Below are positions 1 to 18,664 of a stretch of 27,830 nucleotides of DNA, piece after piece. How positions within the stretch are numbered: the stretch's first letter is position 1; each line of letters starts with the position of its first letter. The DNA is from Planctomycetales bacterium 4484_123. Lineage in GTDB: Bacteria; Planctomycetota; Phycisphaerae; SM23-33. The position numbers and the translations under genes are program-made. The stretch lies in NCBI GenBank assembly GCA_002049885.1, contig MVCS01000001.1, positions 1 to 27,830 on the forward strand. Direction: 5' to 3'. The notes beneath the pieces were generated by a model. That model saw nothing but the letters and a program-made list of their open reading frames with translations. It ran no database searches and had not been told where the DNA came from.

Positions 1-601
1 CGCGGGTCGCGAATCTCCCTGGCCGCGGCCAGGATGTATTCGTGTCCCTTCAGTTCCGCCAATCGGGAGACCTGTGTGGCCAGCACGTCGTCCGGCCCCA
101 GGCCCAACGATTGCCGAAAGAGGTCAACCTCGGCGGGCCGGCGGAGGTACGTCTCGATCTCCATGCCGCTGTAGATGGTGGTGAACTGTTCGGGCCGACC
201 CACGCCGGCGGCCAGTGCCTGGCGGGTCATGGCGTCGGCGACGGAGATGATGGCGTCAGTCTGCCTGGCCGCCCGCCGTTCCAGGGCGATGTACATCCGG
301 TTTCGCCAGCGCGGCAGGTAGGGGTGGAACGGCAGGCCGTGGATGGTATGCACGATGCGGAGGCGGGCGTAGCGGCCGCCGCGACGGCGCAACTTGGCCG
401 CCGCCTGCGCAGTGTCCCCAGCACGACGAGGCGATATCCGCCGGCCCGGGCCCGACCCAGCAGCTCGCCCTCGGGCCCCAGGGGCGGGCCGGTGATGAGC
501 GTCACCTGATGGCCGCGGGCGTGCAGGCCCTCGCAGGTGAGGATGGTGTTCTCCTGGGCCCCGCCGAGGATCATGCGGGTGATGATGTGAACGATCTTCA
601 T
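1..601 (-). pseudogene. Glycosyltransferase family 4 (GT-B), internal deletion with frameshift; 3' end runs off the window
   Basis: The N-terminus MKIVHIITRMILGGAQENT...GPEGELL is GT4-like up to ...LGTLRR (~nt 404). GT4 homology resumes in another frame that is open to nt 1: AAAKLRRRGGRYARLRIVHTIHGLPFHPY...DAIISVADAM...FTTIYSGME...SRLAELKGHEY. The usual intervening segment (about 40 codons, including the DVVHTH-SKAG motif) is absent. Confidence 0.85.
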
Positions 602-2273
602 TGGGCACCATCACACCCGGCCCTGGCGGCGCCGTCAAGGCCGACCGTCCTGGGTGGGGCCGTGGGGCCAGCCGTCCGAGGCTGGCGGTCCGGCCTGGAA
701 CCCGGCACCGTCGGCGGCGGGTGCGACTGTCGGCAGGCCGTTGGCGCCGTTGTCCCCGGGGGCGGGTCTTCGCAGGCCGCCCAGTCCGAAGCGGGCGGCG
801 GCGCGGTACAGGACGGTGTACAGGGTGGGTACGACCACCAGGGTCAGCAGGGTGGCGAAGGCCAGGCCGAAGATGACGGCGATGGCCATGCTCGACCACC
901 ACTGGCTGGACTCGCTGCGGGTGTTGATGATGGTGCCCCAGAAGTTGGCCGGGTCCACGTCGTGGATTTCCAGGCTCACGCCGACGGCCATGGGTATGAG
1001 GCCGAGGATGGTGGTGGTGGCGGTCAGCAGCACCGGGCGCAGGCGGGTCACACCCGCATCCGTGGCCAGGCCGTCTCGGGCGACCCTCTCGATGGCGGCG
1101 CGAGCGTCGGCCTGGCGCCGGCCGAGCCATCCCGGCCTCAGCAGTTGCCAGACGCGTCCGGCGGGGGAGTCTTCCGGCCCCGAGGCTGCGGCCATCAGTG
1201 CCCGGCAGAAGGCGGGCCAGTCGCGGATGTCGTCTTCCCACAGGCGGTTGTCGCCCAGTGGGTCCAATCGTGCCTGGACGTCCTTGAGCACCTCCTCGCT
1301 GCGCCGGCCCTCGGCGTCGGCGGTGATGGTGACCACGCGCTTCTGGTTGATGCGATGGATGGTGCCGAAGCCGGGACGGTAGTCGAACTCGCCCAGCGAG
1401 CTGAGGGGGACCGCCTTGCCTTGGCGGTTGGGCACGCGCAGGCTGAAGAGGTCTTCGATGCGCCGGCGCCGGCTGAGCGGCAGGCGGATGGTGATGTCGT
1501 ACTCGTCGTTGAATTCCCGGAAGGTGCTGACCTCCGTGCCGAAGACGGCCATCTTGAGGAAGTTGCCGATGATGCGGGTGTTGACTCCCAGCAGCATTGC
1601 CCGGCGGCGGTCCACCTTGAAGACCAGTTCCGGCCCGGCCGCCTCCAGGTCGCTGCGCAGGTTGACCAGTCCGGGCACGGGCGGGTCGGAGATCAGGCGC
1701 TTGGCCCGCTCGGCGAGCCTTTCCAGCTCGCGGAAGTCTTTGCCGCTGATCCGCAAGGTGACCGGTGCGCCGGTGGGAGGGCCTTCCTTTTCTTTCTCCA
1801 GCTTGATCTCCGCGCCCGGGATGTCGGCCAGGACACGGCGGATTTCCTCCACGACCTTTGCCGAGGGGCGGTCCTCGGGGCGGTCCTGGTAGTCCAGGAA
1901 CAGCAGCGTGACGTTGGCGACGTGCGGCCCGGAGGCCGAGCCCACCAAGGCGAACCCCTCACCGGCCGATCCCACGTTCGTGATCACATGCTTGAGGTCC
2001 GCTCGGAAGGGTTCGACGCGGCGCTCGACGATTCGCGCCAGGCGGTCTGACTCGCGCAGATTCGTGCCCTGTGGGCTGCGGATGTTGATGTAGGCCCGCC
2101 GGGGATCGAAGTCGGGCAGCAGTTCGAAGCCGTTGCCGCGCTTGGCGTACACCTCGGCCAGGCCCACCAGCAGCAGCACCGCCAGGGCGATGGTAACGGG
2201 CCAGCGCCTCAGCGAGGCAGCCAGCAGCCGGCGGTAACCGCGGATGAACACGAGCCGACTGCGACCTGCGGCG

Positions 2274-2293
2274 GTGACTGACCGGTCAATCAC
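2274..2293. promoter_or_regulatory. 20-bp near-perfect palindrome, probable repressor operator (TetR-like)
   Basis: GTGACTGACCGGTCAATCAC (one mismatched pair), starting 2 nt downstream of the -10 box on the minus strand. Confidence 0.6.
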
Positions 2294-2295
2294 TG

Positions 2296-2324
2296 ATTGT
2301 ATCACGGCAGCCCTGAGGCGCCAA
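2296..2324 (-). promoter_or_regulatory. sigma70-type promoter with extended -10
   Basis: Minus strand TTGGCG-N17-TACAAT, with TG at the extended -10 position (TGaTACAAT). Confidence 0.6.
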
Positions 2325-2473
2325 GGGACGCAATTGGCACCACTTGGTTGGGCGGTCACCGACGATGGCGGGGGCCTTCACGGGCCCGGCTGGGGCTGGT
2401 CATGGCCCTTCATCGCCAGCGTTGGTGACGCCGGGGGGGTTACGTACGCTCTGGGTAGCTGTGGTCGGCGGGG

Positions 2474-3862
2474 CTATTGGTGCCCCCTGGGCCGCTGGCG
2501 TCTCCTGCTCCGGCCGAAGGTGTGCAGCGGCTGGGTGGCCAGCTTCCTGATCCTTCGCCACCAGGCGGCGAGGCTGTGGCCGCTGCGACTCCGCAGCAGG
2601 GCGTGAAAGCGGTGGAAGATCTCGTCGATCCGTTCTGCCGGCAGGGAGGGCATCTCCAGCACGCTGCGAGGGACGTAGAAGCATTCCTCTCCGCGCCCGC
2701 TGATCCAGCCGTTCTCGGCGCACACCTCCGCGGCCCTTGTCCCCGCTATGGGGAAAAAGATTCGCGGGACGACCTCGTCGAGCTTCAATGCCGTCACCAG
2801 GTCGAGGGTTTCTTCGACAGAGACCTCCGACTCGTACGGCACGCCGATGAAGACCATGCCCCGCACCGCCAGCCCGGCCCGTTTCATGGACGAGACGCCG
2901 TTGAGTATCTGGTTGTGCGAGGTGCGCAGGGTCAGCACCTCCTCACGGATGAAGTTGCTGCCTGAGCCGATCTGGACATCCACCTGTCGGCAGCCGGCCC
3001 GGGCGAGTAGTTCGGCCGTGTGCTGCCCCACGGCGTTGAGGCAGACCCGGCAGCGGAAGGGCAGGCCGCAACGGCGGGGGTATTCCTCCGCGAAGCGGGC
3101 CAGCCATTCGGCGTCCGTGGCGAAGGCGTGGTCCTCGAAGACGATGCCCTGGATGCCCTGGTAGCGTTCGACCACGGCGCTGATCTCTGCCAGCAGGTGG
3201 TCCACACTGCGACGGCGCAGGTAGCCGTCCCGGCCGTAAAGCTCGATGTACCAGTCGTTGAGGCAGTGGGCGCACCAATTCAGGCAGCCGCGGGTGGCGC
3301 GGAATGCCGCCTCGTGCTCGGCGGAGACGGTCCGGCCGTAGTCGAATATATCACGGTCGGGGTGGGGCAGCGTGTCCAGGTCGGCAGTCGGCTTGTCGGG
3401 GACATTGCGGACCAGGCCCTCTTCACTGTTGAACCACACGCCGGGCACCTCGGCGGGTGACAGGTCGCTGGTGGCCAGGGCTGCGGTCAGCCTGGGCAGC
3501 GCCTGGTCATATTCGCCGCGGATGAGGGCGGTGACCCCCGGGATGCTGATGGCCTGTTCGGGCTGGGAGGTGGCGTAGCGTCCGACCAGGATGACGGGCA
3601 GGTAGTGTCGCTCGGCGATTTCCACGATGGTGTGGCGAGCAAGGGTGTGGCGGTGGGGGGGGACATCCATGAGGATGTGGCTCGGCCGGTGGCGCGTCAC
3701 TGCCGAGCGCAGTCGGTCGCGGTCGTAGTCGCTCATCGCCACCAGGGCGACCTCCAGGTTCCGGCGGCGGAGCATGGCCACTGCCAGCCCCAGCTCGTGA
3801 CAGAAGCGCGGCCGGTCTGGCGCGTGAGAAGGGGGGACGAGTTGGACAATCAGTATGTTCAT
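2474..3862 (-). CDS. B12-binding domain radical SAM protein
   Basis: CxxxCxxC motif (RGCLNWCAHC), DLDTLPHPDRD linker, N-terminal cobalamin-binding-like region (VGRYATSQPEQ, IRGEYD), FEDHAF and GSGS core motifs. Confidence 0.88.
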   Translation of the reverse strand: MNILIVQLVPPSHAPDRPRFCHELGLAVAMLRRRNLEVALVAMSDYDRDRLRSAVTRHRPSHILMDVPPHRHTLARHTIVEIAERHYLPVILVGRYATSQPEQAISIPGVTALIRGEYDQALPRLTAALATSDLSPAEVPGVWFNSEEGLVRNVPDKPTADLDTLPHPDRDIFDYGRTVSAEHEAAFRATRGCLNWCAHCLNDWYIELYGRDGYLRRRSVDHLLAEISAVVERYQGIQGIVFEDHAFATDAEWLARFAEEYPRRCGLPFRCRVCLNAVGQHTAELLARAGCRQVDVQIGSGSNFIREEVLTLRTSHNQILNGVSSMKRAGLAVRGMVFIGVPYESEVSVEETLDLVTALKLDEVVPRIFFPIAGTRAAEVCAENGWISGRGEECFYVPRSVLEMPSLPAERIDEIFHRFHALLRSRSGHSLAAWWRRIRKLATQPLHTFGRSRRRQRPRGHQ

Positions 3863-3907
3863 GCTCTCCGGCCCTCCGCGCGGCAGGCCGGGGGGCTCCG
3901 GGCCGCC

Positions 3908-4804
3908 CTAGCTGCACAGCCGGGTCACCAGCAGTTGCATGGTCGTCAGTGGGTCGGCGCCGGTCTTCAGTGCCAGGTCTGCTTCGAGCAGATGCCGGAA
4001 ATCTTCGAATGACCTTTGGGGGCTCTGGTCGCGGCCACGTCGGGCCGAACGCGGTCGGCGTCTGCGGCCTTGAAGGCTCGACCGCAGCATCCAGCCGATC
4101 AGCCCCAAGGCGCGGAACTCATCCCCACGGGTGCTGAGCAGGTCGTCGAGGGCCTCCAGCGCCCCCTTCAGGTCCCCGGCCTCTATGGCGTTGGTCAGGG
4201 CGAAGGGCTCCGGTCCGGCGGTGGCGACCACGGCTGCGGCCACGTCGTCGGCGGAGACGGTGCTGCGCCGGCCCACGAACAATGCCAGCTTTTCCAGCTC
4301 GCTGTCCAGCCGCGCCAGGTCCGGCCCGATCCACTCGGCCAGCACCTCCGCCGCCTCGCGCGAGATCGTCTTGCCGCGGGCCCGGGCGAGCTTGCTGATC
4401 CACCCGGGCAGGGCGTCGTAGGCGGGGCAGGAGCAGTCGAAGACCTCCCCCACCTTGGCCGCCTTCCTGGCCAGCACCCATCGTCCCTGCCAGGCGTTGA
4501 CCATCAGCACCAGGGTGCCGGTAGGGCAGGGGTGGTCGAGGTAGTCTTCGAGCTGATGGCGATATCGGCTGACGAAGGGGTCGGCGTCGTGCACGAAGAC
4601 CATTCGGCGGGCCGCCAGCAGCGGGGCGGTGCGGAGTTCGTCGAGCACGGTGGCCAGTTGGGCCTGGCCGTCCAGGTCGGTGACGGCCAGGGCCGTGTGC
4701 TCGTCGGGCGGGAGGGCCTCGATGAGCTGCCTGCGGTAGTGGCGGCGCAGGTAGGGGTCCGGGCCGTTGAAGATGTAGATGCACTTGCAGGGCTTCTCGG
4801 CCAT
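3908..4804 (-). CDS. holA: DNA polymerase III delta subunit
   Basis: IYIFNGPDPYL N-terminus, DELRTAPLL, IGPDLARLDSELEKLAL, C-terminal LLEADLALKTG. The ATG at 4804 is preferred over the GTG at 4813. Confidence 0.88.
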   Translation of the reverse strand: MAEKPCKCIYIFNGPDPYLRRHYRRQLIEALPPDEHTALAVTDLDGQAQLATVLDELRTAPLLAARRMVFVHDADPFVSRYRHQLEDYLDHPCPTGTLVLMVNAWQGRWVLARKAAKVGEVFDCSCPAYDALPGWISKLARARGKTISREAAEVLAEWIGPDLARLDSELEKLALFVGRRSTVSADDVAAAVVATAGPEPFALTNAIEAGDLKGALEALDDLLSTRGDEFRALGLIGWMLRSSLQGRRRRPRSARRGRDQSPQRSFEDFRHLLEADLALKTGADPLTTMQLLVTRLCS

Positions 4805-4896
4805 GGCGCGCACTCATTGTCCAGGAAGCCCGGCGTGTTGTAAAGACGGCAGCAACAGGGCGGGGGTCCGCCGCCCCTGGATGGGTCAGGGCAGTC

Positions 4897-5184
4897 TCAG
4901 ATCAGGCCGAAGAGTTGCTTGACGGCCGCGCCAGCGCGCCGAAACGGAACCGGGTCGATGGAGTAGAAGACCTGCTTTCCCTGGCGGCGATTGCGGACCA
5001 ACCCGTGCGCCCGCAGCAATCCGAGGTGGTGAGAGACGGTAGGCTGGGGCAGGCGGAGGGTCTTGCAGAGCTGCGTGACGTGCTGTTCGCCCTTCTGTAG
5101 CAGCAGGACTACGAGTTTCAGTCTCGTCTGGTCCGAAAGTACACGGAAAAACCTAGACAAGCTCTGGATATGCTGACTCTTCAC
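4897..5184 (-). CDS. ArsR/SmtB family winged-helix transcriptional regulator
   Basis: FRVLSDQTRLKLV, QPTVSHHLGLLRAHGLVRNRRQGKQVFYS; GGAGA SD upstream of the GTG. Confidence 0.88.
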   Translation of the reverse strand: MKSQHIQSLSRFFRVLSDQTRLKLVVLLLQKGEQHVTQLCKTLRLPQPTVSHHLGLLRAHGLVRNRRQGKQVFYSIDPVPFRRAGAAVKQLFGLI

Positions 5185-5443
5185 TATTCCGTCTCCATAG
5201 GGCTTTGGGCAACTTGCCGGGCCAAACCCAGGCGGCTGCCCTGCTTCGGACCGAAAAAGAATATTACGTAAGGCAGCGATGAACAGCCGACCCTTACGGG
5301 CCGCCGGCGCGGAAGGCTTGCCGCCCCTTGCCGTCGGCCCATCGGGAGCTTCCGTTGTCTGCTCGGGTCGGGGAGATGTTCACAGCGGAACGGTCCCGGC
5401 GTCGCGCTGCCGCGCAACCGGGACGGCAGGCGCGACGGAGATA

Positions 5444-5566
5444 TTACATCTGTCGGCGACGATACATGACCAGGCCGATGATGAGGGCGATCAGCACCAC
5501 CAGGAGTGGGAGCTGCCACCATCTGAACCATGCGGCCGCCACACCAAGCAGTCCACCATCGATCAT
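5444..5566 (-). CDS. Small single-pass membrane protein (40 aa), absent from the ORF track
   Basis: MIDGGLLGVAAAWFRWWQLPLLVVLIALIIGLVMYRRRQM*; AAGGAG SD upstream of the ATG; hydrophobic helix followed by a basic tail; dedicated promoter. Confidence 0.8.
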   Translation of the reverse strand: MIDGGLLGVAAAWFRWWQLPLLVVLIALIIGLVMYRRRQM

Positions 5567-5613
5567 GTCGCTCTCCTTCGTGCCGCTGCCGTCAATAACT
5601 GATTGCGATAGTG

Positions 5614-5643
5614 CTTATAGCGTTCCAGCAAAAAATGTGTCAA
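5614..5643 (-). promoter_or_regulatory. sigma70 promoter of the small membrane protein gene
   Basis: Minus strand TTGACA-N18-TATAAG, preceded by a T-tract (UP-like). Confidence 0.72.
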
Positions 5644-5712
5644 GCAAAAACCCTGCATCGCTCGATCGGCCGAACCAGCGTCGCCATGACCGAAGCGGCA
5701 AGGCACGTGCAC

Positions 5713-5785
5713 TGGCGGCGACTGGACTCGAACCAGTGACCCAGGGCTTATGAATCCCTTGCTCTGCCGACTGAGCTACGCCGCC
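5713..5785 (-). tRNA. tRNA with CAT anticodon, probably elongator tRNA-Met (Ile2 not excluded)
   Basis: GGCGGCG TA GCTC AGTCGGCA GAGC A AGGGA TTCATAA GCCCT GGGTC ACTGG TTCGAGT CCAGT CGCCGCC A. The cloverleaf has a G1-C72 pair, so it is not initiator-like. CCA is not encoded. Confidence 0.93.
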
Positions 5786-5918
5786 AACGCCGGTACATAT
5801 TGCCTCTGTCGCCAGGGCATTGCAAGGGCTTTCTCGCCTCCTCCGTATTCCTCCGGTGGCATTTGCGCTGCGGGCCCCGTGCCGGCTGGGCCTTTGTCCG
5901 CGCCGCCGCGGGCGGCGC

Positions 5919-5959
5919 AAAAAACGGCCGGCGCCCCGTCTGAGCCGCGGCGCCGGCCG
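5919..5959 (-). terminator. Rho-independent terminator after the Spy-like gene
   Basis: 11-bp GC-rich inverted repeat (CGGCCGGCGCC / GGCGCCGGCCG) followed by T6 on the minus strand. Confidence 0.75.
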
Positions 5960-5993
5960 GCGTGCTAGAAGCGCACGGAGGGGGGAGCCATCT

Positions 5994-6929
5994 TCATTCA
6001 GTCGTCGTGGCCGTGGGTCCGGTCGCGGCTTGAGTCTTGCGTTTTCTCTGCCGCGGCTTGCGCTTCCTGGGCTGCCGGAGCGGCCTGACCTTTTCACGCT
6101 GCTGTTCGTCGAGGATTTGCTCGCGGACGTAGGTGTAGAGCTTGTTGTAGAGCTCCATCCGGGCCTTGCGGTCGGTCATGTCCACGCCGGTGGACTGCTC
6201 GACGTATGCGGCCTTGATCTTGGCCTTCTGCTCGTCGGTGAGTCTTGCCCGGTGGAAGCGGCGGACGAGGTACGCCACTGCCACTTCTGTCCGCTGCTCG
6301 GGGGAGAGGACTTCCTTCTCGACCTGGGCGTACAGCTTGGCCAGCAGGGTGCTGCGGCCCTTCGCGGTGGTCGCCTCGGTGCCGGCGGCGAGCTTGACGT
6401 AGGCCGCCTTGACCTGCTCTTCCTGCTCGGCGGTCAGCTTGGCCGGGCTGATGCGCCGCTTGACGTCCAGGAGGGCCTGGTACTGGTCCCACTTGGCCTT
6501 CTGCTCGGGGGTGAGGACCTCCATGACGGCGTCACGGAATTTCTTTACGATCGCGTTTTTCTTGCCTCTCAGGGCCGAGTATTCCGCCCAGGCCTTCTTG
6601 GCGGCTTCCTTGTCCTTGGCCTCGCGGGCCTTCTTCAAGGCCTCTCGGAGGGCCTCGTACTTGGCCTTGTTCTCTTCCCGGAAGGCGGTGAGTTCCTTGG
6701 CCCGCTGTGCGTTCAGTTCGGCGATCTGCTTTTGCTGGTCCTCGGAGAGGTCGCAGACCTTGACCATCTGGGCGTGCATGCCACGCAGCAGTGGCCTCTT
6801 TTTCGCTGCACGTGCCTTCCTTGCCTTTCTGGTCTTCTTCGGCGCGGCTTGGCCTTCCCGGGCCAAGAGGCTGGGCGCCGCAATGGCCATGGCGAACAGC
6901 CCAGCCAGGATCCATGTCAGGCGTCTCAT
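5994..6929 (-). CDS. Exported helical protein with six LTxxQ-like motifs (Spy/CpxP-like repeats)
   Basis: Signal-peptide-like MRRLTWILAGLFAMAIAAPSLLA; motifs LSEDQ, LTPEQ, LTAEQ, LSPEQ, LTDEQ, LDEQQ; GGAGA SD before the ATG at 6929, preferred over the track start at 7031. Confidence 0.72.
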   Translation of the reverse strand: MRRLTWILAGLFAMAIAAPSLLAREGQAAPKKTRKARKARAAKKRPLLRGMHAQMVKVCDLSEDQQKQIAELNAQRAKELTAFREENKAKYEALREALKKAREAKDKEAAKKAWAEYSALRGKKNAIVKKFRDAVMEVLTPEQKAKWDQYQALLDVKRRISPAKLTAEQEEQVKAAYVKLAAGTEATTAKGRSTLLAKLYAQVEKEVLSPEQRTEVAVAYLVRRFHRARLTDEQKAKIKAAYVEQSTGVDMTDRKARMELYNKLYTYVREQILDEQQREKVRPLRQPRKRKPRQRKRKTQAATGPTATTTE

Positions 6930-7044
6930 CGGTGTTCTCCCTGGGGGCTTGTGTTGCGCCACGGCGCCGCCCCCTGGCGCCGGGCGGCTCGCGACGGGTC
7001 GGGCGTCGGCCCCAAGACCGCCCGAGTTCACAGTGCGGACTATT

Positions 7045-7070
7045 AAACGCCCAGGGCGGGCTGGGGTTGC
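7045..7070 (-). promoter_or_regulatory. ECF-sigma-type promoter candidate for the Spy-like gene
   Basis: Minus strand GCAAC-N16-CGTTT, matching the general ECF AAC...CGT pattern. Confidence 0.45.
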
Positions 7071-7208
7071 GGTGGAGGGCTGGAAATCTTCCGCCCCGGC
7101 CAGGGGTTGGGCTGGGTTGGCCGGACGACAAGGCCCGCATCCAGTCGGATGGGCCCAAGGCGGCGCACCAATGAGACTTGCGATTGGTGCCGGCCGTCCT
7201 GCCGGCCC

Positions 7209-7532
7209 TCAGCCTCCCCCGCCGGCTGCGTCTTTCTTGGTCGATTCGGCGCCGGAGTCGGCCTGACCGGATTTCGACCGGCCGGACTCGGCGGGGCTTG
7301 GGGACTCTCCGGAGCTGTGTTTTTTCTCGGTCCGCTTGCCGTGATTGTTGCGGCGGTAGTCGGTTTCGTAGAAGCCGCTGCCTTTGAAGATGACCCCGGC
7401 CCCGGTGCCCAGGAGTCGGCGCAGGCCCAGCCGACCGCAGGCGGGGCACTTCCGCAGCGTCCCAGCGGTGATGGACTGGAAGCGCTCGAAGTGATGGCCG
7501 CAGTATTGGCACTCGTACTCGTACGTTGGCAT
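7209..7532 (-). CDS. FmdB family zinc-ribbon protein
   Basis: MPTYEYECQYCGHHFE...CPACG...GAGVIFKGSGFYETDY, with a low-complexity tail. Confidence 0.9.
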   Translation of the reverse strand: MPTYEYECQYCGHHFERFQSITAGTLRKCPACGRLGLRRLLGTGAGVIFKGSGFYETDYRRNNHGKRTEKKHSSGESPSPAESGRSKSGQADSGAESTKKDAAGGGG

Positions 7533-7534
7533 GC

Positions 7535-8170
7535 CTACTCGCTTTCGTTGTCGTTGGGGCTCTGGATCTCGGTGGTCTCCTCCTTGGCGGCAACGGGGGC
7601 GGAGATCACCACGCGCGCGGGTCGCAGCACTCTGCCGTTCAGTTCGTATCCTTTTTGCAGTTCGTCCAGCACGGTCGGCGCAGCGTGCTCGGCGGAGGGC
7701 CTTTGCATCATGGCCTCGTGCCGGATGGGGTCGAAGGCCTGACCCGCTGCCTGGATGGGGCGCAGGCCGTAGCCGCCCAGTATCTCCAGGGCCTTCTTGT
7801 ACACCAGTTGCATCCCCGCCAGCAACGGGTCTTCCTCGCTGTGGTTGGCCTTGGCGGCTTCCAGGGCCCGCTCCATGTCGTCCAGCACGCCCAGCAGGTC
7901 GCGGATGAGCTCGGCATTGGCGAACTGTCGGGCCTCTTCCATGTCGCGCTGGACGCGCTTCTGGTAGTTGACGTAGTCGGCCGAGAGCCGTTTCAGCCGG
8001 GCCAGCAGGTCGTCGCGCTCGGCCTGAAGGGCCTTGAGGTCCGCAGCCATTTGGGCGCAGGTGGGCTCACGGCCCTCCGCCGGTGGTTCTGCCGTCGGCT
8101 CTGCCGGCCGGTCCTGCCGGTCGGGGCCATCGGGTCGTTCTTCAGGTCGCTTGTGCTTACGTGACGCCAT
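7535..8170 (-). CDS. grpE: Nucleotide exchange factor GrpE
   Basis: RLSADYVNYQKR, LLGVLDDMERAL, FDPIRHEAM, QKGYELNGRVLRPARVVI. Confidence 0.96.
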   Translation of the reverse strand: MASRKHKRPEERPDGPDRQDRPAEPTAEPPAEGREPTCAQMAADLKALQAERDDLLARLKRLSADYVNYQKRVQRDMEEARQFANAELIRDLLGVLDDMERALEAAKANHSEEDPLLAGMQLVYKKALEILGGYGLRPIQAAGQAFDPIRHEAMMQRPSAEHAAPTVLDELQKGYELNGRVLRPARVVISAPVAAKEETTEIQSPNDNESE

Positions 8171-8231
8171 TTTTGTACCGTGTCTGCTGTGGCCTGCGCC
8201 GGCGCCGGAGGCACCGGCGCACGTGGTTGAT

Positions 8232-9368
8232 TCACTTGAAGCGATCTGCCGCCCTTTCGAAGAAGCCGGGCTTTGACGGTTTGACCTCGCTCTGTTCGAC
8301 GCTTGCCAGGTCGCGCAGGAGTTGCTCGTGTTTCTTGGAAAGTTTTTTGGGCACGACCAGGCGGAGTTGGACGTGCTGGTCGCCTCTGCGTCCGGTACGG
8401 CGGTCGGGCAGCCCGGCCCCCTTGATGGTCACCACATCGCCGGGCTGGGACCCGCGGGGGACCGAGACGCTCAGCGTTCCGCTCAGGGCAGGGACCTGGA
8501 TGGTGGCCCCGAGGGCGGCCTGGGTGTAGGTGATGGCGGCCTGGCAGATGATGTCGTTGCCGGAGCGCCAGAAGGCCTCGTCCGGCAGCACGCGGATGTA
8601 GCAGTGCAGGTCGCCGCGGGGACCGTTTGCCGCCGCCGGCTCGCCCTCGCCCGGGATGCGCAGCACTTCTCCATCGGCCACGCCGGGCGGAATGTGCACG
8701 GTCAGCACGCACTTCTTGCGTTTCCGGCCGGTGCCGCGGCACTCGGGGCAGGCCTCGGCGATGATACGGCCACTGCCCCGGCAGGCCGGGCAGGTCTGGC
8801 TGATACGGAAGAACGAGGAGACCTGGCGTTGGACCCGGCCCGTTCCGCCGCAGCGGCTGCATGTCTGGGGGGCGGTGCCCGGCTTGGCCCCGCTGCCGCC
8901 GCAGTGGTCGCAGAAGTCCATTCGCTCGAACTCCAGCTTCCGTTCCGTGCCGGTGGCGACCTCCTGGAGGGTCACGTCGAACTGGGTTTCGAGGTCGTAG
9001 CCCTTTCGTCTCCGGCCCCAGCGTTGGGCGAAGCCGCCGAGGTCGCCTCCGATCCCGAACAGGTCCCCGAGGATGTCGGCGAACATGCTGGAGATGTCCC
9101 CCAGGTCCATGCCCGAGAAGTCGTGCACGCCCGCCCCGCGCAGGCCGGCGTGCCCGTGGCTGTCGTACAGGGCGCGGCGCCGAGGGTCGGAGAGCACCTC
9201 ATAGGCCTCGGCCAGCTCCTTGAACTTTGCCTCCGCCTCGGCCTTGTCGCCGCGATAGTTGTCGGGGTGGTACTTCAGGGCCAGACGCCGGTAGGCGCGG
9301 CGGATCTCCTCGGGCCCGGCATCGCGGGCCACGCCCAGCACCTCGTAATAGTCTCTTTTCTCTGGCAT
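8232..9368 (-). CDS. dnaJ: Molecular chaperone DnaJ
   Basis: J domain with HPD, G/F-rich region, four CxxCxGxG zinc-finger repeats, C-terminal GDQHV domain. Confidence 0.97.
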
Positions 9369-9426
9369 GGGTCCTGGCCAGATGCCCTCTGCGCCTCGGC
9401 CGCCGGTGCGCCCGGCCCCGAAAAGT

Positions 9427-9461
9427 CAGGGGCGCCTCAGCCGACCACCGAAGCGCCCCTG
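9427..9461 (-). terminator. Stem-loop between groEL and dnaJ (possible partial terminator or RNA-stabilising hairpin)
   Basis: 9-bp arms CAGGGGCGC / GCGCCCCTG followed by ACTTTT on the minus strand. Confidence 0.45.
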
Positions 9462-9495
9462 CCACGTGCAGTGAATATCGGCCGACGCGACCGTC

Positions 9496-11118
9496 TCACT
9501 TTATCGCCCCGGCGACTTCCTCTTGCTCTTCGGCCTTCTCGTCGAATTCGGTGACCATGACGTTGGTGGTCAGCAGCAGGCCGGCCATGGAGGCCGCGTT
9601 TTGCAGGGCGGTACGACCGACCTTGGCCGGATCGATGATGCCGGCCTTGAACATGTCGACATATTGGTCGTGGGAGGCGTCGTAGCCGATGTCCTTGCCC
9701 CGCTCCAGGATGATCTCCACCACCACGGCCCCGTCTCCGCCGGCGTTCTCGACGATCTGCATGGTGGGGCAGCGCAGCGCCCGGGCGACGATGTCCACGC
9801 CCAGTTTCTCATCGCCGGTGACCTTGGACCGGACCTTCTCCACAGCTCGGATGGCCCGCAGGAAGGCCACGCCGCCGCCGGGGACGATGCCTTCCTCGTT
9901 GGCGGCCCGGGTGGCGTGCATGGCGTCGTCGATGAGGTCCTTGCGCTCCTTCATCTCGCTTTCGGTGGCGGCGCCGGCGCGGATGATGGCCACCCCGCCG
10001 GTGAGCTTTGCCAGCCGCTCCTGGAGCTTCTCGCGGTCGTAGTCACTGGTGGTCTTTTCGATCTGGTTGCGGATGGTCTGGATGCGGGCGTTGATCTCGC
10101 TGCGCCTGCCGGCGCCCTCGATGATGGTAGTGCTATCCTTGTCCACCACCACGCGCCGGGCCTGGCCCAGCATTGACAGCTCCACGTTCTCCAGCTTGAT
10201 GCCCACGTCCTCGCTGATGAACTGCCCGCCGGTGACCACGGCGATATCGCCGAGGATGGCCTTTCGCCGGTCGCCGAAGGCCGGCGCCTTGACGGCACAG
10301 ACCCTCAACGTGCCCCGCAGCCGGTTGATCACCAGCGCCGCCAGGACCTCGGTGTTCACGTCCTCGCAGATGATCAGCAGCGACCGGCCCGCCGCGACGA
10401 CCTTTTCCAGCAGCGGCACCAGGTCGCGAATGGATTCGATCTTCTTTTCGTGCACCAGAATGAGGGGGTCCTCAAGCACGCATTCCAGGTTGTTGAGGTC
10501 GGTCATGAAGTAGGCCGAGATAAACCCCTTGTCGAACTGCATGCCCTCGACGAACTCCAGTTCGGTCTGGAGGCCCTTGCCTTCCTCGACGGTGATGACC
10601 CCGTCCGGGCCGACCTTCTCGATGGCCTCGGCGATGAGCTTGCCGATGCGCTCATCCCAGTTGGCCGAGACGGTCGCCACCTTGCGGAGCTCGTCGGAGC
10701 TGCGGACCTTCCGCGCCTGTTGGGCGATGCTCTCCACGGCGGCCTCCACGGCCGCGTCGATGCCGCGCTTCAGGGCCAGGGGATTGGCTCCGGCGGCGAC
10801 GGCCTTGAGCCCCTCGCGCATGATGGCCTCGGCGAGGACCACCGCCGTGGTGGTGCCGTCGCCGGCGACGTCCGAGGTCTTCGAGGCCACCTGGTTGAGC
10901 AGCTTGGCACCCATGTTGGCGAAGGGGTTGGTCAGCTCGATCTCCTTGCTGACGGTGACGCCGTCCTTGGTGACCTTGGGCCCGCCGAAGGACTTTTGCA
11001 GCAGCACGTTCCTGCCGGTAGGTCCCAGGGTGACCTTCACGGCCGCGGCCAGGGCGGCCGCCCCGTCCAGCAGCGCCGCCCGCGCATCGGCGTCGAAGAG
11101 CATCTGTTTGGCTGCCAT
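9496..11118 (-). CDS. groEL: Chaperonin GroEL (downstream paralog, no GGM tail)
   Basis: [39 protein letters not shown]; AAGGAG SD before the ATG at 11118. Confidence 0.97.
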
Positions 11119-11229
11119 CTTTTGCTCCTTCATGGACTGATCGATCGGCCGACTGACCGTCGCGCCCCTCGGCGGGCGCCGCCCCGGCAGCGGGCCGGCG
11201 GTCGGCCCCTCAGCCTCTCGCCCAGGGGG

Positions 11230-11520
11230 CTATTTCTCCACCACTGCCAGCACGTCGGATTCACGGAGGATGACGTAATCCTCCCCGTCGATCTTCACCT
11301 CCGTGCCGGCGTACTTGGCATAGTACACCTCGTCGCCTTTCTTGAGGCTCATCTCGCTACGCTTGCCTGAATCCAGCAGCTTGCCCGGCCCCACGGCCAC
11401 GATGGTGCCGCGCTGGGGCTTTTCCTGTGCGGTGTCCGGCAGGACGATCCCGCCGGCCGTTACCTCTTCGGCTTTGGACTGCTTGACCAACACCCGGTCT
11501 TCCAACGGTTTCACTGCCAT
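11230..11520 (-). CDS. groES: Co-chaperonin GroES
   Basis: [43 protein letters not shown]; AAGGAG SD before the ATG at 11520. Confidence 0.97.
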
Positions 11521-11616
11521 CTGTCGGTGCTCCTTCCTACAAATCCCTGCCGTGCAACGGCGGCCCATCGCCCGATGCTCCAGTCCAACGGTCACAGCGG
11601 GGCCCGACAGGCCCCA

Positions 11617-13242
11617 TCAGGCCATGCCGCCGGGGCCGCCGGGAGAACCTTCCTCCTCCTCGGTGGGCTTCTCGGTGACCACGCAGTTGCAGGTCAGCAG
11701 CAGCGTGGCCACGCTGACGGCGTTGGCCAGGGCGGACTTTGTGACCTTCGCCGGGTCGATTACACCGGCGGCCAGCAGGTCCTCGTAGCGCATGGTCTCG
11801 GCGTTGAAGCCGAAGCCGTCTCCGCCGCTCTCGACCTTCCGCAGCACGACCGACGGTTCCCGGCCGGCGTTGGCCACGATCTGGCGGAGTGGCTCCTCCA
11901 GGGCCCGGGCCACGATGGCCACCCCGGTGGCCTCGTCGCCCTGGGCCTTGATGTCCTTCAGGGCGCTCTTGGCCCGCACCAGTGCCACGCCCCCGCCGGG
12001 CAGGATGCCCTCCTCGATGGCCGCTCGGGTCGCGTGCAGGGCGTCCTCGACGCGGGCCTTCTTTTCCTTCATCTCCGACTCGGTGGCCGCCCCGACGTTT
12101 ATCTGGGCCACCCCGCCGGCCAGCTTCGCCAGCCGCTCCTGGAGCTTCTCGCGGTCGTAGTCGGAAGTGGTGGTCTCGATCTCCTCGCGGATCTGGGCGA
12201 TCCGGCCCTGGATGGCGCGGGTGCTGCCGGCGCCCTCGATGATGGTGGTGTTGTCGTTGTCCACCACCACCCTCTTGGCCTGGCCCAGGTCGGTCAGGGA
12301 GATGTTCTCCAGGTCGATGCCCAGGTCCTTGGTAAAGACCTTGCCGTTGGTGAGGATGCCGATATCGGCCAGCATGGCCTTGCGCCTGTCGCCGTAGCCG
12401 GGGGCCTTGACCGCACAGCAAGAGACGATGCCGCGGAGCTTGTTGACCACCAGCGTGGCCAGGGCCTCGCCCTCGACGTCCTCGGCGATGATCAGCAGGG
12501 GTTTCTTGGCCTTGGCCACCTTCTCCAGCAGCGGCACCAGCTTGCCCACGTTGCTGATCTTCTCTTCCAGGATCAGGATGAGGGGGCGTTCGAGCACGCA
12601 GACCATGTCTTCCTGATTGGTGGCGAAGTGCGGGCTGAGGAAGCCGCGGTCGAACTGCATGCCTTCGACCACGTCCACGGTGGTCTCGATGCCGCGGCCT
12701 TCCTCCACGGTGATCACGCCGTCCTTGCCCACCTTGGCCAGGGCGTCGGCCATTATCTTGCCCACGCTGACATCGTTGTTCGCCGAGATGGCCGCCACGT
12801 TGACAATGTCGGTGCGGTTGCTGATGTCCACGGGCCGGGACATCCGGGTGAGGGCCTCATCGACCTTGGCCGCCGCCCGGCGGATGCCGCGCGCCAGGGC
12901 CATGGCGTCGGCCCCGGCGGCGATGTTCTTGAGTCCCTCGGCCAGGATGGCCTGGGCCAGCACGGTGGCCGTGGTCGTGCCGTCGCCGGCGGCGTCCGAG
13001 GTCTTGCTGGCGGCCTCCTTGACCAATTGGGCGCCCATGTTCTCGAACTTGTCGGTCAGCTCGATTTCCTCGGCGACGGTCACGCCGTCCTTGGTGACTG
13101 TCGGGGCGCCCCAGCCCTTGTCCAGCACGGCCGTTCGGCCGCGGGGACCCAGCGTGCTCTTGACCGCATCGGTGACCTTGTTGACGCCCGCCAGCAGGGC
13201 GGCCCGGGCATCGCTGTCGAAGGCCAGTTGCTTGACCGCCAT
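11617..13242 (-). CDS. groEL: Chaperonin GroEL (upstream paralog)
   Basis: [37 protein letters not shown], short GGPGGM tail; AAGGAG SD before the ATG at 13242. Confidence 0.97.
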
Positions 13243-13416
13243 GGAAGCTTCTCCTTTCCCTTCGGCTGCCGTCTCACTCGCCAGGCCGGCCGCGCCCAAG
13301 TCCATGCAGCGCCCCCACGCCCGTTCCCGGCGGCTCGGCCGCCACTGCATCGGCCGGGGCGGTACTGCCCGACCCAGGCCCGGCACAACGACTCCGCCGT
13401 ATTGGCCCAGCTTCGG

Positions 13417-13432
13417 TGCAATTGCCGTGCCT
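13417..13432 (-). promoter_or_regulatory. sigma54 (RpoN) -24/-12 promoter candidate for the chaperone cluster
   Basis: Minus strand AGGCACGGCAATTGCA: GG-N10-GC spacing, close to the TGGCACG-N4-TTGCW consensus. Confidence 0.65.
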
Positions 13433-13769
13433 GTGGAGCTAAGCGTTTCCGTGGCGACATGTTATGTGCAACATCGGCATTTGTCGCTGCTGTCGTGCCT
13501 GCCAGATGGTGCAGCCTGGCCAGACCTTGCCGGCGATTTTGACAGGTGCAGGCCCGCCCAAGCATCTCCATGGGCCCTGGCGGCACTGGCCGGCCGACAG
13601 TCGCCGCCAAGGGGCCCGAGCGGCAGATGCGCCCCGTCGCGGTGGTTCCCAGTTGCACTGGCCTGACCGTCAGATGCCGCCAAGGCACGTGGTCGGCCGC
13701 CCGAAGGGGCGAAGATTGCCTCGTTTGGACCTTTCCCGGCCCCTCCGGTCGTATATCATAGGCGGGATT

Positions 13770-15308
13770 ATGCCCGACCTGCGCGAATATCTTGGCAGCG
13801 AGACGTTGGAGCAATTGACCGGTCTGTTCTCGGAGGCCGTGGGGTCTCCGGTGCGGATCATCTCCGCTGATGAGGCGCCCCTGGCCGGTGCGGCGAGCGC
13901 GACTCGCCTGGCCGGGCAGATGCGGATCGTGGTGGCCGGCCGGCATGTCGGCAGCATCGCCCTGGACGGTTCGGCCGGCCCGCCGACACCGGAGGGCCTC
14001 CGGCTGCTGGGGCTGATGCGCGACATGCTCACTCGCCTGTGCGAACAGGCCCACCAGCTCCGCGAGCGCGTTGAGGAGCTGGCGGCGATGTACAGGCTGA
14101 CGGAGGTCTTCACCGGGCGGAGATCCCTGGAGGAGGTCCACCGGCTCGCCGCCGAGACCATGGTCAAGGTCACCGGCGCGGACGCCTGTTCCATCCGGGT
14201 GTTCAACGACGACCGCACCGAATTGCTGTGCGTGGCGGCCTGCGGTCTGAGCCGGCAGTACATGGACAAGGGCTCCATCCTGCTGGCCGACAGCCAGATC
14301 GACCAGCAGGTGGTGGCCACGGGCCAGTGCGTGTACATCGCCGACGAGCGCACGGACGAGCGCGTGCTGTACCAGGCCGAGGCCCGGCGGGAGGGGATAG
14401 TCTCGGCCCTGTGCGCCCCCATGGCCTACAAGGGCAGGGTGGAGGGCGTCGTCCGGGTGTACACGCGCCGGCGGCACGAGTTCGACTGGTTCGAGACCTC
14501 GCTCATTCGGGGCGTGGCGTCGCAGGCGGCGGCCGCCATCGTCAACGCCCGGCTATATGCCGAGGCCCTCTCGGCGGAGCGCATCCGCCGGCATCTGCGC
14601 CTGGCGGGCGAGGTCCAGCGGCGGATGATCCCGGCCCGGCCGCCGCACATCGAGGGCGTGGACGTGGCCGCCGTCTATGTGCCCTGCTTCGAGCTGGGGG
14701 GCGATTTCTACGATTTCATCGAGTTGCCGGCGGACAACTGGGGCCTGTGCGTGGCGGACGTGGTGGGCAAGGGGGTGCGGGCGTCCCTGTTGATGGCCTC
14801 GGCGCGGTCGTCGCTGCGGGCGCACGCCTTCCACATGTTCGCCCTCTCGGACGTGCTGTCCGCAGTCAACGTGGACATGTGGTGCCAGAGCGACGAGAGC
14901 GATTTCCTGACCATGTTCTACGGGGTGCTGGACGTGCGGGACCGCCGGCTGACGTACTGCAACGCCGGCCACGAGCCGCCCCTGCTGGTTCGCGGCGGGC
15001 AGGTGCGGGCGCTGGGCAGTTCCGGCGGCGTCATCGGCATGGACCCGCACATGCAGTATGGCCACGAGGTGTTGGAGCTGCGCAGTGGCGACGCGCTGCT
15101 GATGTACACCGACGGGTTGCCGGAGGCGATCAACTTTGACGATGAGGCCTTCGGGCGGGAGCGGGTGCGGTCGGCCGCACTGTCCGCCGTGCGGCGCGGC
15201 GAGACGGCCGAGGGCATCGGCAAGCACGTGTTGTGGGAGATGCGACGCTTTGCGGGCTTGCAGCGTCGCTTCGATGACTTGACATTGGTGGTCGTTCGGT
15301 TTCAATGA
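13770..15308 (+). CDS. GAF domain + PP2C/SpoIIE (RsbU-like) serine phosphatase with a short PocR-like N-terminus
   Basis: GAF region (ACSIRV...SALCAPM...GVVRVY...QAAAAIVNARLY); PP2C motifs GGDFYD, ADVVGKG, NAGH, YTDGL, DDLTL. The ATG at 13770 is preferred because the track extension from 13464 is non-homologous. Confidence 0.9.
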   Translation: MPDLREYLGSETLEQLTGLFSEAVGSPVRIISADEAPLAGAASATRLAGQMRIVVAGRHVGSIALDGSAGPPTPEGLRLLGLMRDMLTRLCEQAHQLRERVEELAAMYRLTEVFTGRRSLEEVHRLAAETMVKVTGADACSIRVFNDDRTELLCVAACGLSRQYMDKGSILLADSQIDQQVVATGQCVYIADERTDERVLYQAEARREGIVSALCAPMAYKGRVEGVVRVYTRRRHEFDWFETSLIRGVASQAAAAIVNARLYAEALSAERIRRHLRLAGEVQRRMIPARPPHIEGVDVAAVYVPCFELGGDFYDFIELPADNWGLCVADVVGKGVRASLLMASARSSLRAHAFHMFALSDVLSAVNVDMWCQSDESDFLTMFYGVLDVRDRRLTYCNAGHEPPLLVRGGQVRALGSSGGVIGMDPHMQYGHEVLELRSGDALLMYTDGLPEAINFDDEAFGRERVRSAALSAVRRGETAEGIGKHVLWEMRRFAGLQRRFDDLTLVVVRFQ

Positions 15309-15402
15309 GGCGGCGTCAGCCGTTTCCGCCCCATGACGCGGGGGGCGAGATCGGCCGAGAAAGCCAGGCCGCGTCGGACCGTGCTTTTCGCTCGTAGTAC
15401 CG

Positions 15403-16473
15403 ATGAGTCATTTCTGTCTTCTGGCCGATCCAGACAACTACACCGTCACGGACGTGGACCTGCTCGCCGACGCGGATGCCAGGGCTTACTGGATCAGGTT
15501 GTTCGAGGAGCATTTCGAACGGGCGCTGGCGGCGGCTCGTGAGGCCTACGGTCGGGCGCACGCCAAGGATGTGGAATCAGCGCGGGCGGCCTTCGCGGCG
15601 GCCCTGGCCCCGCTGCGGGGCCGGGAGGTCCCGGACATGGACGGCCCCGTGGGCGTGGTGCAGCTCTGCCGCATGCGGGAGAGGGCCCTTCGCGACAACG
15701 GCCTGCACGATCCCTTCCGCCATATCAAGCTCAGGGAAAACCAGCGTGCCCTGGGAGCATACCCCGAGGTGGTGGCCAGGCTGGAGGAGTTCAGCCCCGA
15801 GCAGCGCTGGGAGGAGCTCATCCGCGGCGTGTTCGCCGGGAACATCTTCGACCTGGGCAGCGCCGCGACCATGGGCTACGCCGACCAGCAGGTGGATTTC
15901 CCCGCCGAGGTGGAAAAGATCAGGTCCCGGCCGTGGCGAATCGATGATTTCGACGCCCTGGCCGAAGTGCTTCCACTGGCCGGGGGCGAACCGGCGCCGT
16001 GGGGCAAGGCCGTAATCTTCGTGGACAACGCCGGGGCCGACTTCGTCCTGGGCCTGATGCCCCTGGCGCGGGAGCTGGCCGCCCATGGCACCCAGGTGGT
16101 GCTGGCCGCCAACGAGCTGCCCAGCCTCAACGACATCACGGCCGATGAGACCGCGGACCTCGTGGGGCAGTTGACCACAGTCGATGAGGACCTGGCCAGC
16201 TACGTCTCGGCGGGACTGTTCGAGGTGGTCTCCACGGGGAACGATATCCCGCTGATCGACTTCTCTGAAGTCTCCGATGAGCTCAACGAGGCCGCCGCGA
16301 ACGCCGACCTGGTGGTCCTGGAAGGCATGGGGCGGAGCGTCGAGAGCAACCTCAACACGCAGTTCACGGTGGACTCCATCCAGTTGTGCCTGCTGAAGGA
16401 CCCATTCGTCGCGGCCTGGGTCGGAGGGGAGGTCTTCGACTGCGTGTGCATGTACCGCCCGGTGGAAGGGTAG
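15403..16473 (+). CDS. DUF89/ARMT1-like damage-control metal-dependent phosphatase (PANK4 C-terminal / plant subfamily II type)
   Basis: KLREN..AL, GVFAGNIFDLGS, RPWRIDD, VIFVDNAGADFVLG, LAANELPSLND, LEGMGR..ESN. Confidence 0.88.
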   Translation: MSHFCLLADPDNYTVTDVDLLADADARAYWIRLFEEHFERALAAAREAYGRAHAKDVESARAAFAAALAPLRGREVPDMDGPVGVVQLCRMRERALRDNGLHDPFRHIKLRENQRALGAYPEVVARLEEFSPEQRWEELIRGVFAGNIFDLGSAATMGYADQQVDFPAEVEKIRSRPWRIDDFDALAEVLPLAGGEPAPWGKAVIFVDNAGADFVLGLMPLARELAAHGTQVVLAANELPSLNDITADETADLVGQLTTVDEDLASYVSAGLFEVVSTGNDIPLIDFSEVSDELNEAAANADLVVLEGMGRSVESNLNTQFTVDSIQLCLLKDPFVAAWVGGEVFDCVCMYRPVEG

Positions 16474-16554
16474 GCCCCGGCTTCGCTGTCCCCCTCGCAA
16501 GGACGGGTCCGGGGATCGAAATCCCTGGGCCTCTGTGTGGTCTTGGCGCACGCC

Positions 16555-16647
16555 CTACGCTTCGCGGGCGGCCTGGACGTAGGCCTCGAAGTTCTCCACG
16601 GGCACCTCCGGCTCCAGCACGTGGGTGGGGCCGAGTATCAACCGGCC
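16555..16647 (-). pseudogene. C-terminal remnant of a uroporphyrinogen decarboxylase (UroD/MtaA-CmuA) family gene, fused to the GH20 remnant
   Basis: GRLILGPTHVLEPEVPVENFEAYVQAAREA* matches the typical end of UroD-family proteins (G.IL.P.H.....VP.EN). Confidence 0.65.
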
Positions 16648-17366
16648 GGCGGCGCCACCGATGCCGAAGAGTTGCCGGCACAGGCGGGCCATGAATGCAG
16701 CCCCCGCCGCACCGGCCCGGCCTGGCGGACCATGGCGGCGGTATAGGCCGCCGCCGGCAGGTAGGCGTCCCGCAGGCCGCGCCAGGGCGCCCACCAGGTG
16801 TTGACCAGGCCGAGGACCTTCCCGCCCCGGGCGCCCCGCCGCAGCGTCGCCGCCATGGCGTCCATGTTCTCGAAGTTGGCCCGATTGGGCATGATCATGT
16901 CGCCCGAGTGGCACAGGGCAGGGCAGCCGATGACGCGGAAGCCCGCCCGCAGGCTGCGGCGGATGGGCTCGGGCCGGATGGCCCGGTACTGCCAGTGGGC
17001 CAGGATGAGGTCGCGCGGCAGGGACTTCAGCATGGCCGGGTCGTGCTCCACATGGTCGGCCCAGACTATCATCTCCTTGCCGGCGGCGGCGACGGCCTGG
17101 TGAATCGCCTTGAGGTGCTGGGCGTAGAGCCACCATCTGGGCCGACCCCGGCTGCGGCGCCGGCAGCGCGGGCAGTCGCCCACGTTCACCTCGTCCATGC
17201 CGGCGTGGAAGTACCGGCTGGGGAACAGCTCGGCCACCTCGGCGATGATTTCCTTCAGCAGCGGCAGCGTGCGCGGGTGGGACGGGCAGATGGCGTTGAA
17301 GCCGTGGCCCTCCCCGCCGTCGGCCAGTTCGGCGTATTGTGGCAGGGAGGTGATGGCCCGGGCGTG
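16648..17366 (-). pseudogene. Glycoside hydrolase family 20 (beta-N-acetylhexosaminidase-like) fragment
   Basis: HARAITSLPQY...AICPSHP...LFPSRYFHAGMDEV (catalytic DE pair), MIVWAD, WQY, GLVNTWW. There is no homologous N-terminus or credible start, and the frame shifts near nt 16701-16705. Confidence 0.78.
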
Positions 17367-17440
17367 GTCGGGCATCTTGCCAGGGCGCTCCGGGTGGGGC
17401 AAGCCTCGGGCCGACCAACTTGGAAGCCGGATGCTGCCAT
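17364..17440. repeat. REP-like GC-rich element at the GH20 truncation point
   Basis: Contains GGGCATCTTGCC and TGGAAGCCGGATGCTGCCA. An inverted copy of the core (GGGCAAGATG) lies near nt 17566. The resemblance to PVC short palindromic repeats is from recall and was not searched. Confidence 0.35.
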
Positions 17441-17636
17441 GAGCGATGTGAAAGTTTGCAGGCAACCAGACAGGAATCGGGAGGATTAAGCCGACAGGCA
17501 GCAGTGAGGCCCAAGGGGGCGGAAGGCGCAATTTTTTGTGTAAGTTGTCTTTTCTGCTGGACTTGGGCAAGATGGGGCGGGCGGTCAGGGTCGTGGCTCT
17601 GCAACAATTTCCAGCAAATCTAGTCCCATTAGCCCC

Positions 17637-17664
17637 TTGACAGATGAGGAATTCGTGGTAAACT
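17637..17664 (+). promoter_or_regulatory. Strong sigma70 promoter of the PEP-CTERM gene
   Basis: TTGACA-N16-TAAACT with an extended -10 TG. Confidence 0.75.
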
Positions 17665-18615: not shown

Positions 18616-18664
18616 AGCCCTGGCGGCAAAGACGTACCGTACACATACGTACGCCAGTAACCTC

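Follow-up and report, generated by a model that had tools for sequence, protein, structure and literature searches.

Genomes in an early phase of reductive evolution, such as those of Sodalis glossinidius, Mycobacterium leprae and Shigella, carry a verified pseudogene load that ranges from several percent to tens of percent. The same genomes show reduced coding density, often an expansion of insertion sequences (IS), and a host-restricted lifestyle. Remnants of single genes or operons after large deletions are a second known phenomenon in bacteria, and several lesions per dead gene are the usual pattern. A third is technical: in metagenome-assembled genomes (MAGs), contigs can be locally misassembled and scaffold joins can contain overlaps that were not merged, with 13 errors in 1.13 Mb in one example (Chen et al. 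2020, Genome Res, PMC7111523). Here, these three phenomena are compared with a stretch of 27,830 nt from Planctomycetales bacterium 4484_123 (contig MVCS01000001.1 of assembly GCA_002049885.1), referred to as the window. An earlier note had placed six discontinuities in it, affecting a GT4 glycosyltransferase gene, an RND efflux permease gene, and a GH20-like gene fused to the tail of a URO-D-family gene; all six are present in the contig within ~10 nt of the places given there.

The window probably holds two real dead accessory loci and one assembly artefact, and is not evidence for genome-wide decay. Five of the scars exist in the organism's DNA, and they belong to two loci rather than representing six independent events in six genes. 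Both loci, RND and GH20-like/URO-D-like, have syntenic homologs in relatives and disabling lesions in the organism's DNA. As in other bacterial gene remnants after operon-scale deletion, there are intact syntenic orthologs, large deletions, a homopolymer frameshift, a fusion and several recent lesions per locus; nothing is unusual in this comparison, and the difference seen here is that a tetR operator survives beside a truncated pump gene. With the MAG errors (PMC7111523) the contig shares a consensus unsupported by an independent assembly (118 nt in GT4), missing or duplicated (41 nt) sequence elsewhere in the genome, and incomplete or frameshifted genes; it differs in the density estimated here, ~40 or more per Mb, which is higher, and in that only one site was verified directly. 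Early reductive evolution would also produce deletion-biased decay of efflux, glycan and catabolic genes with chaperone and replication genes intact, but here coding-like density is normal, assembly errors confound the excess of frame breaks, and the organism is found in open sediments.

The window spans the entire contig C98. With 170 contigs (each at least 5 kb), of which C98 is the longest, the MAG, here G000, comprises 1.46 Mb with 57.5% completeness and 0.9% contamination. The GC content of the window is 68%. The closest relative, G017, shares ~70% amino acid identity and the gene order of the window. A marine-sediment run, X1, carries near-identical DNA (0.89 of sampled words, with ~0.2% of sites differing from the window) and is probably the source run of the MAG. 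Logan contigs, which are unscaffolded k-mer contigs, served as an independent assembly of runs X1, X2 and X4, and the gene map was built from codon-position GC, Pfam and tRNA scans. A scan of JGI metagenomes with the radical-SAM (rSAM) neighbour of the RND gene returned relatives at 80% and 62% only, and a conspecific contig was not found.

The efflux locus contains the following features:

635-2377, minus strand: stop-to-stop open reading frame (ORF) holding the RND remnant
635-2254, minus strand: remnant of the RND (AcrB-family) permease, with the end of TM6/TM7, the second periplasmic loop and TM11-12 retained, together with a portion of a lineage-specific insert
1064-1069, minus strand: junction of an internal in-frame deletion, with TM8-TM10 and the rest of the insert gone
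2255-2473, minus strand: orphaned upstream region of the efflux operon, with a 20-bp palindromic operator kept at 2275-2294

Members of the RND family have ~1000-1200 aa, 12 transmembrane (TM) helices and two large periplasmic loops, and orthologs in 19 relatives (48-69% identity) have open frames of ~1050-1220 aa where contigs do not cut them. The 580 codons of the window ORF match only positions 513-835, 956-984 and 988-1020 of the 1021-position ACR_tran profile (PF00873), and only residues 515-819 and 956-1018 of MexK in a PDB alignment. In an alignment with seven orthologs, homology begins at the end of TM6 and continues over the second periplasmic loop as far as residue ~60 of the insert before jumping to the TM11 region, so that TM1-6 and TM8-10 are missing. 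The internal deletion, taken as the part of the gene unmatched between the G017 alignment segments, measures 561 nt (~187 codons) and is in frame; its junction is crossed by an X1 Logan contig covering 408-1229. The insert itself, which is ~130-150 aa long and separates the second periplasmic loop from TM8, is present in the orthologs of G017 and G012 (L002, L003) and not in five other family members, and its first ~60 residues are kept at 1075-1262.

The second junction of the efflux locus lies at its 5' side, at ~2254-2274. The operator next to it is identical at 19 of 20 positions to one upstream of tetR in G017 (L111:2914-2933). Two contigs of G017 (C115, 1-55, and the end of C209; L111, L020) overlap by 54 nt, or 18 identical RND codons, and are joinable. 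Once joined, they read dnaJ-grpE-LTXXQ-ArsR-holA-rSAM-tetR-MFP(HlyD)-RND-GT4, which is the neighbourhood of the window. An RND operon includes a membrane-fusion protein (MFP) partner of the HlyD type, while the window runs from the operator straight to RND codon ~505. Given the order tetR-MFP-RND in G017 and the operator kept in the window, a single deletion of ~3.4 kb, which starts immediately beyond the operator and reaches RND codon ~505, removed tetR, the MFP gene and half of the pump. All eight sampled 31-mers of 2215-2335, across this junction, are present in X1. The ORF is a remnant and not a functional member of the family, and no 12-helix pump can form from it.

Two observations concern other versions of this locus. 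In run X4, contigs agree with the window as far as 1220 and again from 2200; beyond these points they continue for at least 255 nt in unrelated sequence, and there is almost no depth over 1249-1872. Neither of these loose ends resembles the window or has a match elsewhere in the genome; they probably derive from a relative at 90-95% identity with a different middle of the RND gene. The JGI contig Ga0111187_1007 (L106:11629-16560), whose rSAM protein is 62% identical, carries the block dnaJ-grpE-LTXXQ-ArsR-holA-rSAM followed by tetR-MFP-RND. Its RND protein is only ~30% identical to that of the family, which suggests an exchange of the efflux cassette at this position.

In the second locus, the features are:

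16558-17381, minus strand: URO-D tail and GH20-like remnant together
16558-16646, minus strand: tail of a URO-D-family gene (last 28-29 codons), fused to the GH20-like remnant
16647-16695, minus strand: out-of-frame GH20-like codons that correspond to G017 residues 322-340 (10/18 identical in a local alignment)
16701-16705: C5/G5 homopolymer at the 1-nt frameshift
16696-17381, minus strand: GH20-like core remnant, Pfam positions 130-262 of 348, with the first ~100 codons and the promoter lost
17382-19794: replacement segment with a lower-GC non-coding stretch, a PEP-CTERM gene and an Amidohydro_1 gene

GH20-like orthologs have 539-548 aa in most relatives, and that of G017 is ~70% identical. 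The window copy starts at the equivalent of G017 residue 101 and covers profile positions 130-262, compared with 1-262 in G017 (PF00728). Its 5' end lies at ~17366-17381 and barrel strands 1-3 are lost, leaving an incomplete (beta/alpha)8 barrel. The frame is also discontinuous, with a switch placed at 16695|16696 by the frame scan and no residues missing relative to the orthologs. The C-terminal ~198 codons are replaced by the URO-D-like tail, which is identical at 27 of 29 residues to the C-terminus of the URO-D-family ORF of G017 (PF01208), with DNA homology over 16568-16647. As the two genes are adjacent in G017 (GH20-like at 6655-8274, directly before URO-D-like at 8275-9345), the deletion behind the fusion can be put at ~1.58 kb. 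At the position of the replacement segment, G017 has NagB-like, PfkB-kinase and Amidohydro_2 genes, and the amidohydrolase of the window is unrelated. The whole amino-sugar cluster is thus dismantled.

The GH20 lesions are real and common to populations of at least three studies. A single X1 contig (record 7, 16110-18071) spans all three without gaps, the 16647 junction is spanned by X4 record 30, and the 17366 junction by X4 record 31 and X2 record 14; these X4 and X2 contigs come from other studies and have 0-4 mismatches. The remnants of both loci are 69-78% identical to G017, as similar as their intact neighbours (64-80%), and inactivation was therefore recent.

The GT4 break is of a different kind:

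3-601, minus strand: GT4 gene, its 5' part present, with Pfam Glyco_transf_4 matches in two frames and the 3' end running off the contig

A codon-log-odds Viterbi frame scan places the switch exactly at 407|408, and the translations show 64 N-terminal codons in one frame and the next 135 in another, with domain positions 57-93 missing in the Pfam match. An X1 Logan contig (record 1, 1191 nt) consists of window 157-407, 118 extra letters, and window 408-1229. The GT4 orthologs of G017 and G015, 67-80% identical on either side of the break, have 120-123 nt more exactly at 407|408 (~39-40 codons) and no other residues missing in the window copy. The remainder of 118 divided by 3 is 1, the shift needed to mend the frame. 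Because the 118 letters match the ortholog gap in size and restore the frame, the GT4 scar reflects 118 nt left out of the MAG contig, at most a minor allele, rather than decay of the gene. An independent assembly thus carries sequence absent from the contig, the disabling lesion is not found in the organism's DNA, and the gene is probably intact there. In run X4, one contig stops at 407 and another begins at 421, so the spot is evidently hard to assemble. Across 18.7 kb of the window, the MAG and X1 contigs differ by two full-depth indels, one of 118 nt at 407 and one of 2 nt at 18641, a rate that would be enough for the genome-wide excess of broken frames described below. At 18641, in the spacer after the PEP-CTERM gene, two letters of the MAG contig are absent from the Logan contigs of both X1 and X2, which makes this indel specific to the MAG.

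Across the MAG, same-strand frame switches with the upstream frame open for at least 30 nt were taken as candidates and those open for at least 100 nt as strong. G000 contains 122 candidates (84/Mb), among them 64 strong breaks (44/Mb), or about one strong break per 23 kb. Four related MAGs (895 kb) have 29 candidates (32/Mb) and 6 strong breaks (6.7/Mb), so that strong breaks are ~6x more frequent in G000; G017, with the same GC content, has 38/Mb and 7/Mb, respectively. Candidates with the upstream frame open for less than 70 nt past the switch were mostly normal gene boundaries (murF|mraY, lpxD|lpxC, phoH|7TM-HD, rhodanese|htrA) and were not counted as strong. Pfam searches on ~50 mended candidates gave the same division, with weak ones mostly ordinary boundaries and strong ones true breaks within domains. 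The strong breaks affect M16 peptidase (three), AddA helicase, SpoIID, DUF4962, two DegT, GT2, GT1, aldo-keto reductase, ETF-alpha, RsgA, PriA, an ECF sigma factor, large TPR proteins and others. They are enriched only 1.4-fold near contig ends, and the errors are therefore not an end effect. Selected breaks are:

C144:3662-4922 (L072): lpxC-fabZ, ~64 nt missing at the linker and FabZ start
C125: priA, ~80 nt missing
C140: etfA, ~83 nt missing
C39: enolase-like gene, ~60 nt missing
C41: ~100 nt missing
C146: ~129 nt missing
C111: ~55 nt missing
C68 (322-6631, L069): DUF4962 gene, at least three breaks with ~0, ~690 and ~168 nt missing relative to G017
C91: rsgA, ~0 nt missing, a 1- or 2-nt indel by length
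C25, 16227-16310: exact 41-nt tandem duplication

Breaks thus fall on genes regardless of function, including lpxC-fabZ, priA, etfA, rsgA and addA, some of which are unlikely to be dispensable to the cell. The fused lpxC-fabZ gene is one open frame of 425-489 aa in 18/18 relatives searched and apparently single-copy in 17, and its break is probably an assembly omission. Mended rsgA encodes 376 aa, compared with 375-376 aa in orthologs; a protein database search with it gave a best match of 71%, and a conspecific protein was not found. The enolase-like gene on C39 was rejected as a core gene, being a divergent enolase-superfamily paralog in tandem. The 41-nt duplication on C25 looks like two overlapping sub-contigs set end to end, and two more duplications of 40-41 nt were seen on C41 and C90. 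As a general signature, unmerged-overlap duplications (18-200 nt) were discarded, since they are not enriched (8/Mb in G000, 9-13/Mb in controls) and fit few breaks. The TPR gene (1488 aa) adjoining the DUF4962 gene on C68 has two breaks of its own; for this region, small sub-contigs chained at low coverage and another true pseudogene are the two alternative explanations.

The remaining genes of the window are:

635-2377 is followed at 2474-3862, minus strand, by the radical-SAM gene
3908-4813, minus strand: holA
4897-5184, minus strand: ArsR
5712-5786, minus strand: tRNA-Met (CAT), from the tRNA scan
Up to 13461, minus strand: LTXXQ protein, grpE, dnaJ, groEL, groES and groEL, in this order
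13464-15308, plus strand: GAF-SpoIIE
15403-16473, plus strand: ARMT1-like
17734-18615, plus strand: PEP-CTERM protein gene
18725-19801, minus strand: Amidohydro_1 gene
After the amidohydrolase: miaA, MBL-fold protein, two CNNM proteins
Right end of the map, minus strand: dacB, pfkA, truA

That the neighbouring genes are intact, as the earlier note had it, is borne out by essentially full Pfam coverage of holA, ArsR, grpE, dnaJ, both groEL, groES, GAF-SpoIIE, ARMT1-like, miaA, CNNM/CorC, dacB, pfkA and truA. The second CNNM paralog, which is without a CorC_HlyC domain, was rejected as a lesion, as its G017 ortholog aligns to its very end. A depth spike (~100x summed) at 5617-6240 in all four runs is explained by the tRNA gene. 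The LTXXQ-motif periplasmic protein has three tandem matches in G017 (L111:6637-9275, C115) and one or two ORFs at 5994-7593 of the window.

Assembly artefact, which the note had kept as an alternative in the form of collapsed or chimeric assembly, accounts for one scar and probably for many of the breaks in the remaining genome. It is extremely unlikely that it also made the other five, so that all six scars were artefacts and the RND and GH20 genes were intact in the organism. Such a reading could point to the local assembly errors demonstrable in this MAG, to the X2 contig that stops at ~1067, and to the absence from X2-X4 of all eight sampled 31-mers at 2215-2335; other populations may carry different RND alleles. 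Yet unscaffolded X1 contigs cross the junctions at 1066, 16647, 16700 and 17366, contigs from other studies span two of these, X1 has every sampled word at the 5' RND junction, where the conserved operator is kept, and a paired-end gap would hardly seem able to accommodate deletions of 1.6-3.4 kb. If the deletions are real, the remnants might still be used as shortened proteins, such as a half-RND periplasmic module expressed from an orphaned, unrepressed promoter or a truncated GH20-like protein. This would be compatible with an RND frame open for 580 codons, an internal deletion that keeps the frame, gene-like codon-position GC (GC3 0.87), an identity to G017 no lower than that of intact neighbours, and the kept operator with its putative promoter. 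It is nevertheless very unlikely, since no RND fold can form without TM1-6 and TM8-10, the partner MFP gene is deleted, and the GH20-like protein is both frameshifted and short of three barrel strands; DNA of 68% GC keeps open frames by chance.

The earlier note had reasoned that assembly errors should also strike core genes and that scars confined to accessory genes therefore reflect decay. The confinement holds inside the window, but the premise fails because breaks do strike core genes elsewhere in the MAG. Genome-wide pseudogenisation in early reductive evolution, with most breaks in the MAG being real mutations under relaxed selection, is unlikely. The sixfold rate of strong breaks relative to related MAGs and the five confirmed lesions of the window would fit it, as would the multi-lesion genes (DUF4962 on C68, M16 on C85), the fact that the broken RND gene is the only one detected in the 57% of the genome that was recovered, and the many affected genes with envelope, glycan or repair functions. 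A genome of ~2.5 Mb, estimated from MAG size scaled by completeness, also lies toward the small end of the family range (2.3-5.8 Mb), within which it falls. Against it, the short-omission break that was checked, GT4, is an assembly omission; a real deletion would leave the fused lpxC-fabZ without a usable FabZ domain; priA, etfA and rsgA are broken as well; and the narrow size class of 55-170 nt is odd for natural deletions. The coding-like fraction, one of the checks the note had proposed, is 0.89 in G000 and 0.71-0.88 in the four relatives, so coding density is not lowered, in a weak test in which recent pseudogenes still score as coding. Near-identical DNA also occurs, in smaller shares, in sediment and hydrothermal-vent runs of six further studies, which makes at least seven studies altogether. 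This free occurrence does not suggest the host or niche restriction that the note had proposed.

Several points weigh against reading the window as two dead loci in an error-rich MAG. The stretches of the control MAGs were taken from long, well-assembled contigs. The artefact status of the ~60 other excess breaks rests on their size pattern and housekeeping matches, with GT4 the sole break checked, and with X1 ~0.2% divergent from the window, the 118 nt might reflect a polymorphism that separates the samples instead of an error. The failure of X2-X4 to show the 5' RND junction counts here too, as does the X2 contig end at ~1067, and contigs of X2-X4 stop near 1067 and ~2000. True reductive evolution also erodes the classes to which several of the broken genes (addA, priA, LPS, glycosyltransferase) belong, and the multi-lesion genes, including the ~690-nt loss on C68, could be true pseudogenes.

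Two dead loci and an error-rich MAG together still give the best account. The excess of breaks in G000 and their presence in housekeeping genes are both observed directly, and the simplest explanation for these dozens of local errors, which comprise omissions of ~55-170 nt, slips of 1 nt and a duplicated overlap of 41 nt, lies in faulty joins. The recurrent omissions are read as artefacts because GT4, the one checked member of the class, is an assembly omission. Sub-contigs would have been joined without gap sequence at ~10x coverage. In the efflux operon, one deletion of ~3.4 kb removed half of the RND gene together with tetR and the MFP gene, and another of ~561 nt, in frame, removed TM8-TM10. 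In the amino-sugar cluster, the GH20-like gene lost its 5' part, where the neighbouring genes of the relative are replaced by other DNA, gained a frameshift in the C5 run, and was fused to the URO-D tail by a deletion of ~1.6 kb; both non-essential clusters would have decayed further after their first inactivation. Sized against G017, as the note had also advised, the losses come to ~3.4 kb, 561 nt, ~1.58 kb and ~100 codons. Relaxed selection with deletion bias, as suggested in the note, fits these two accessory clusters; its extension to early reductive evolution is unsupported, and what is seen is the ordinary loss of two accessory clusters. Two dead loci among ~27 genes are not unusual, and gene remnants by operon-scale deletion and local errors in MAGs are both already known as phenomena.

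It is quite unlikely that, after removal of the errors, the lineage would still carry a high recent pseudogene load (several percent, in efflux, glycan and catabolic genes). If it did, this would represent an early stage of genome streamlining in a free-living organism, not yet described for Phycisphaerae. The quality of this MAG rules out a pseudogene census without read-level curation, and inferring pseudogenes or genome decay from a low-coverage MAG is unsafe unless each break is checked against reads; the broken gene calls would pass into protein databases. For the organism itself, the window documents that, relative to a sister genus, one lineage of Phycisphaerae has lost an efflux operon and an amino-sugar cluster, a routine kind of loss.

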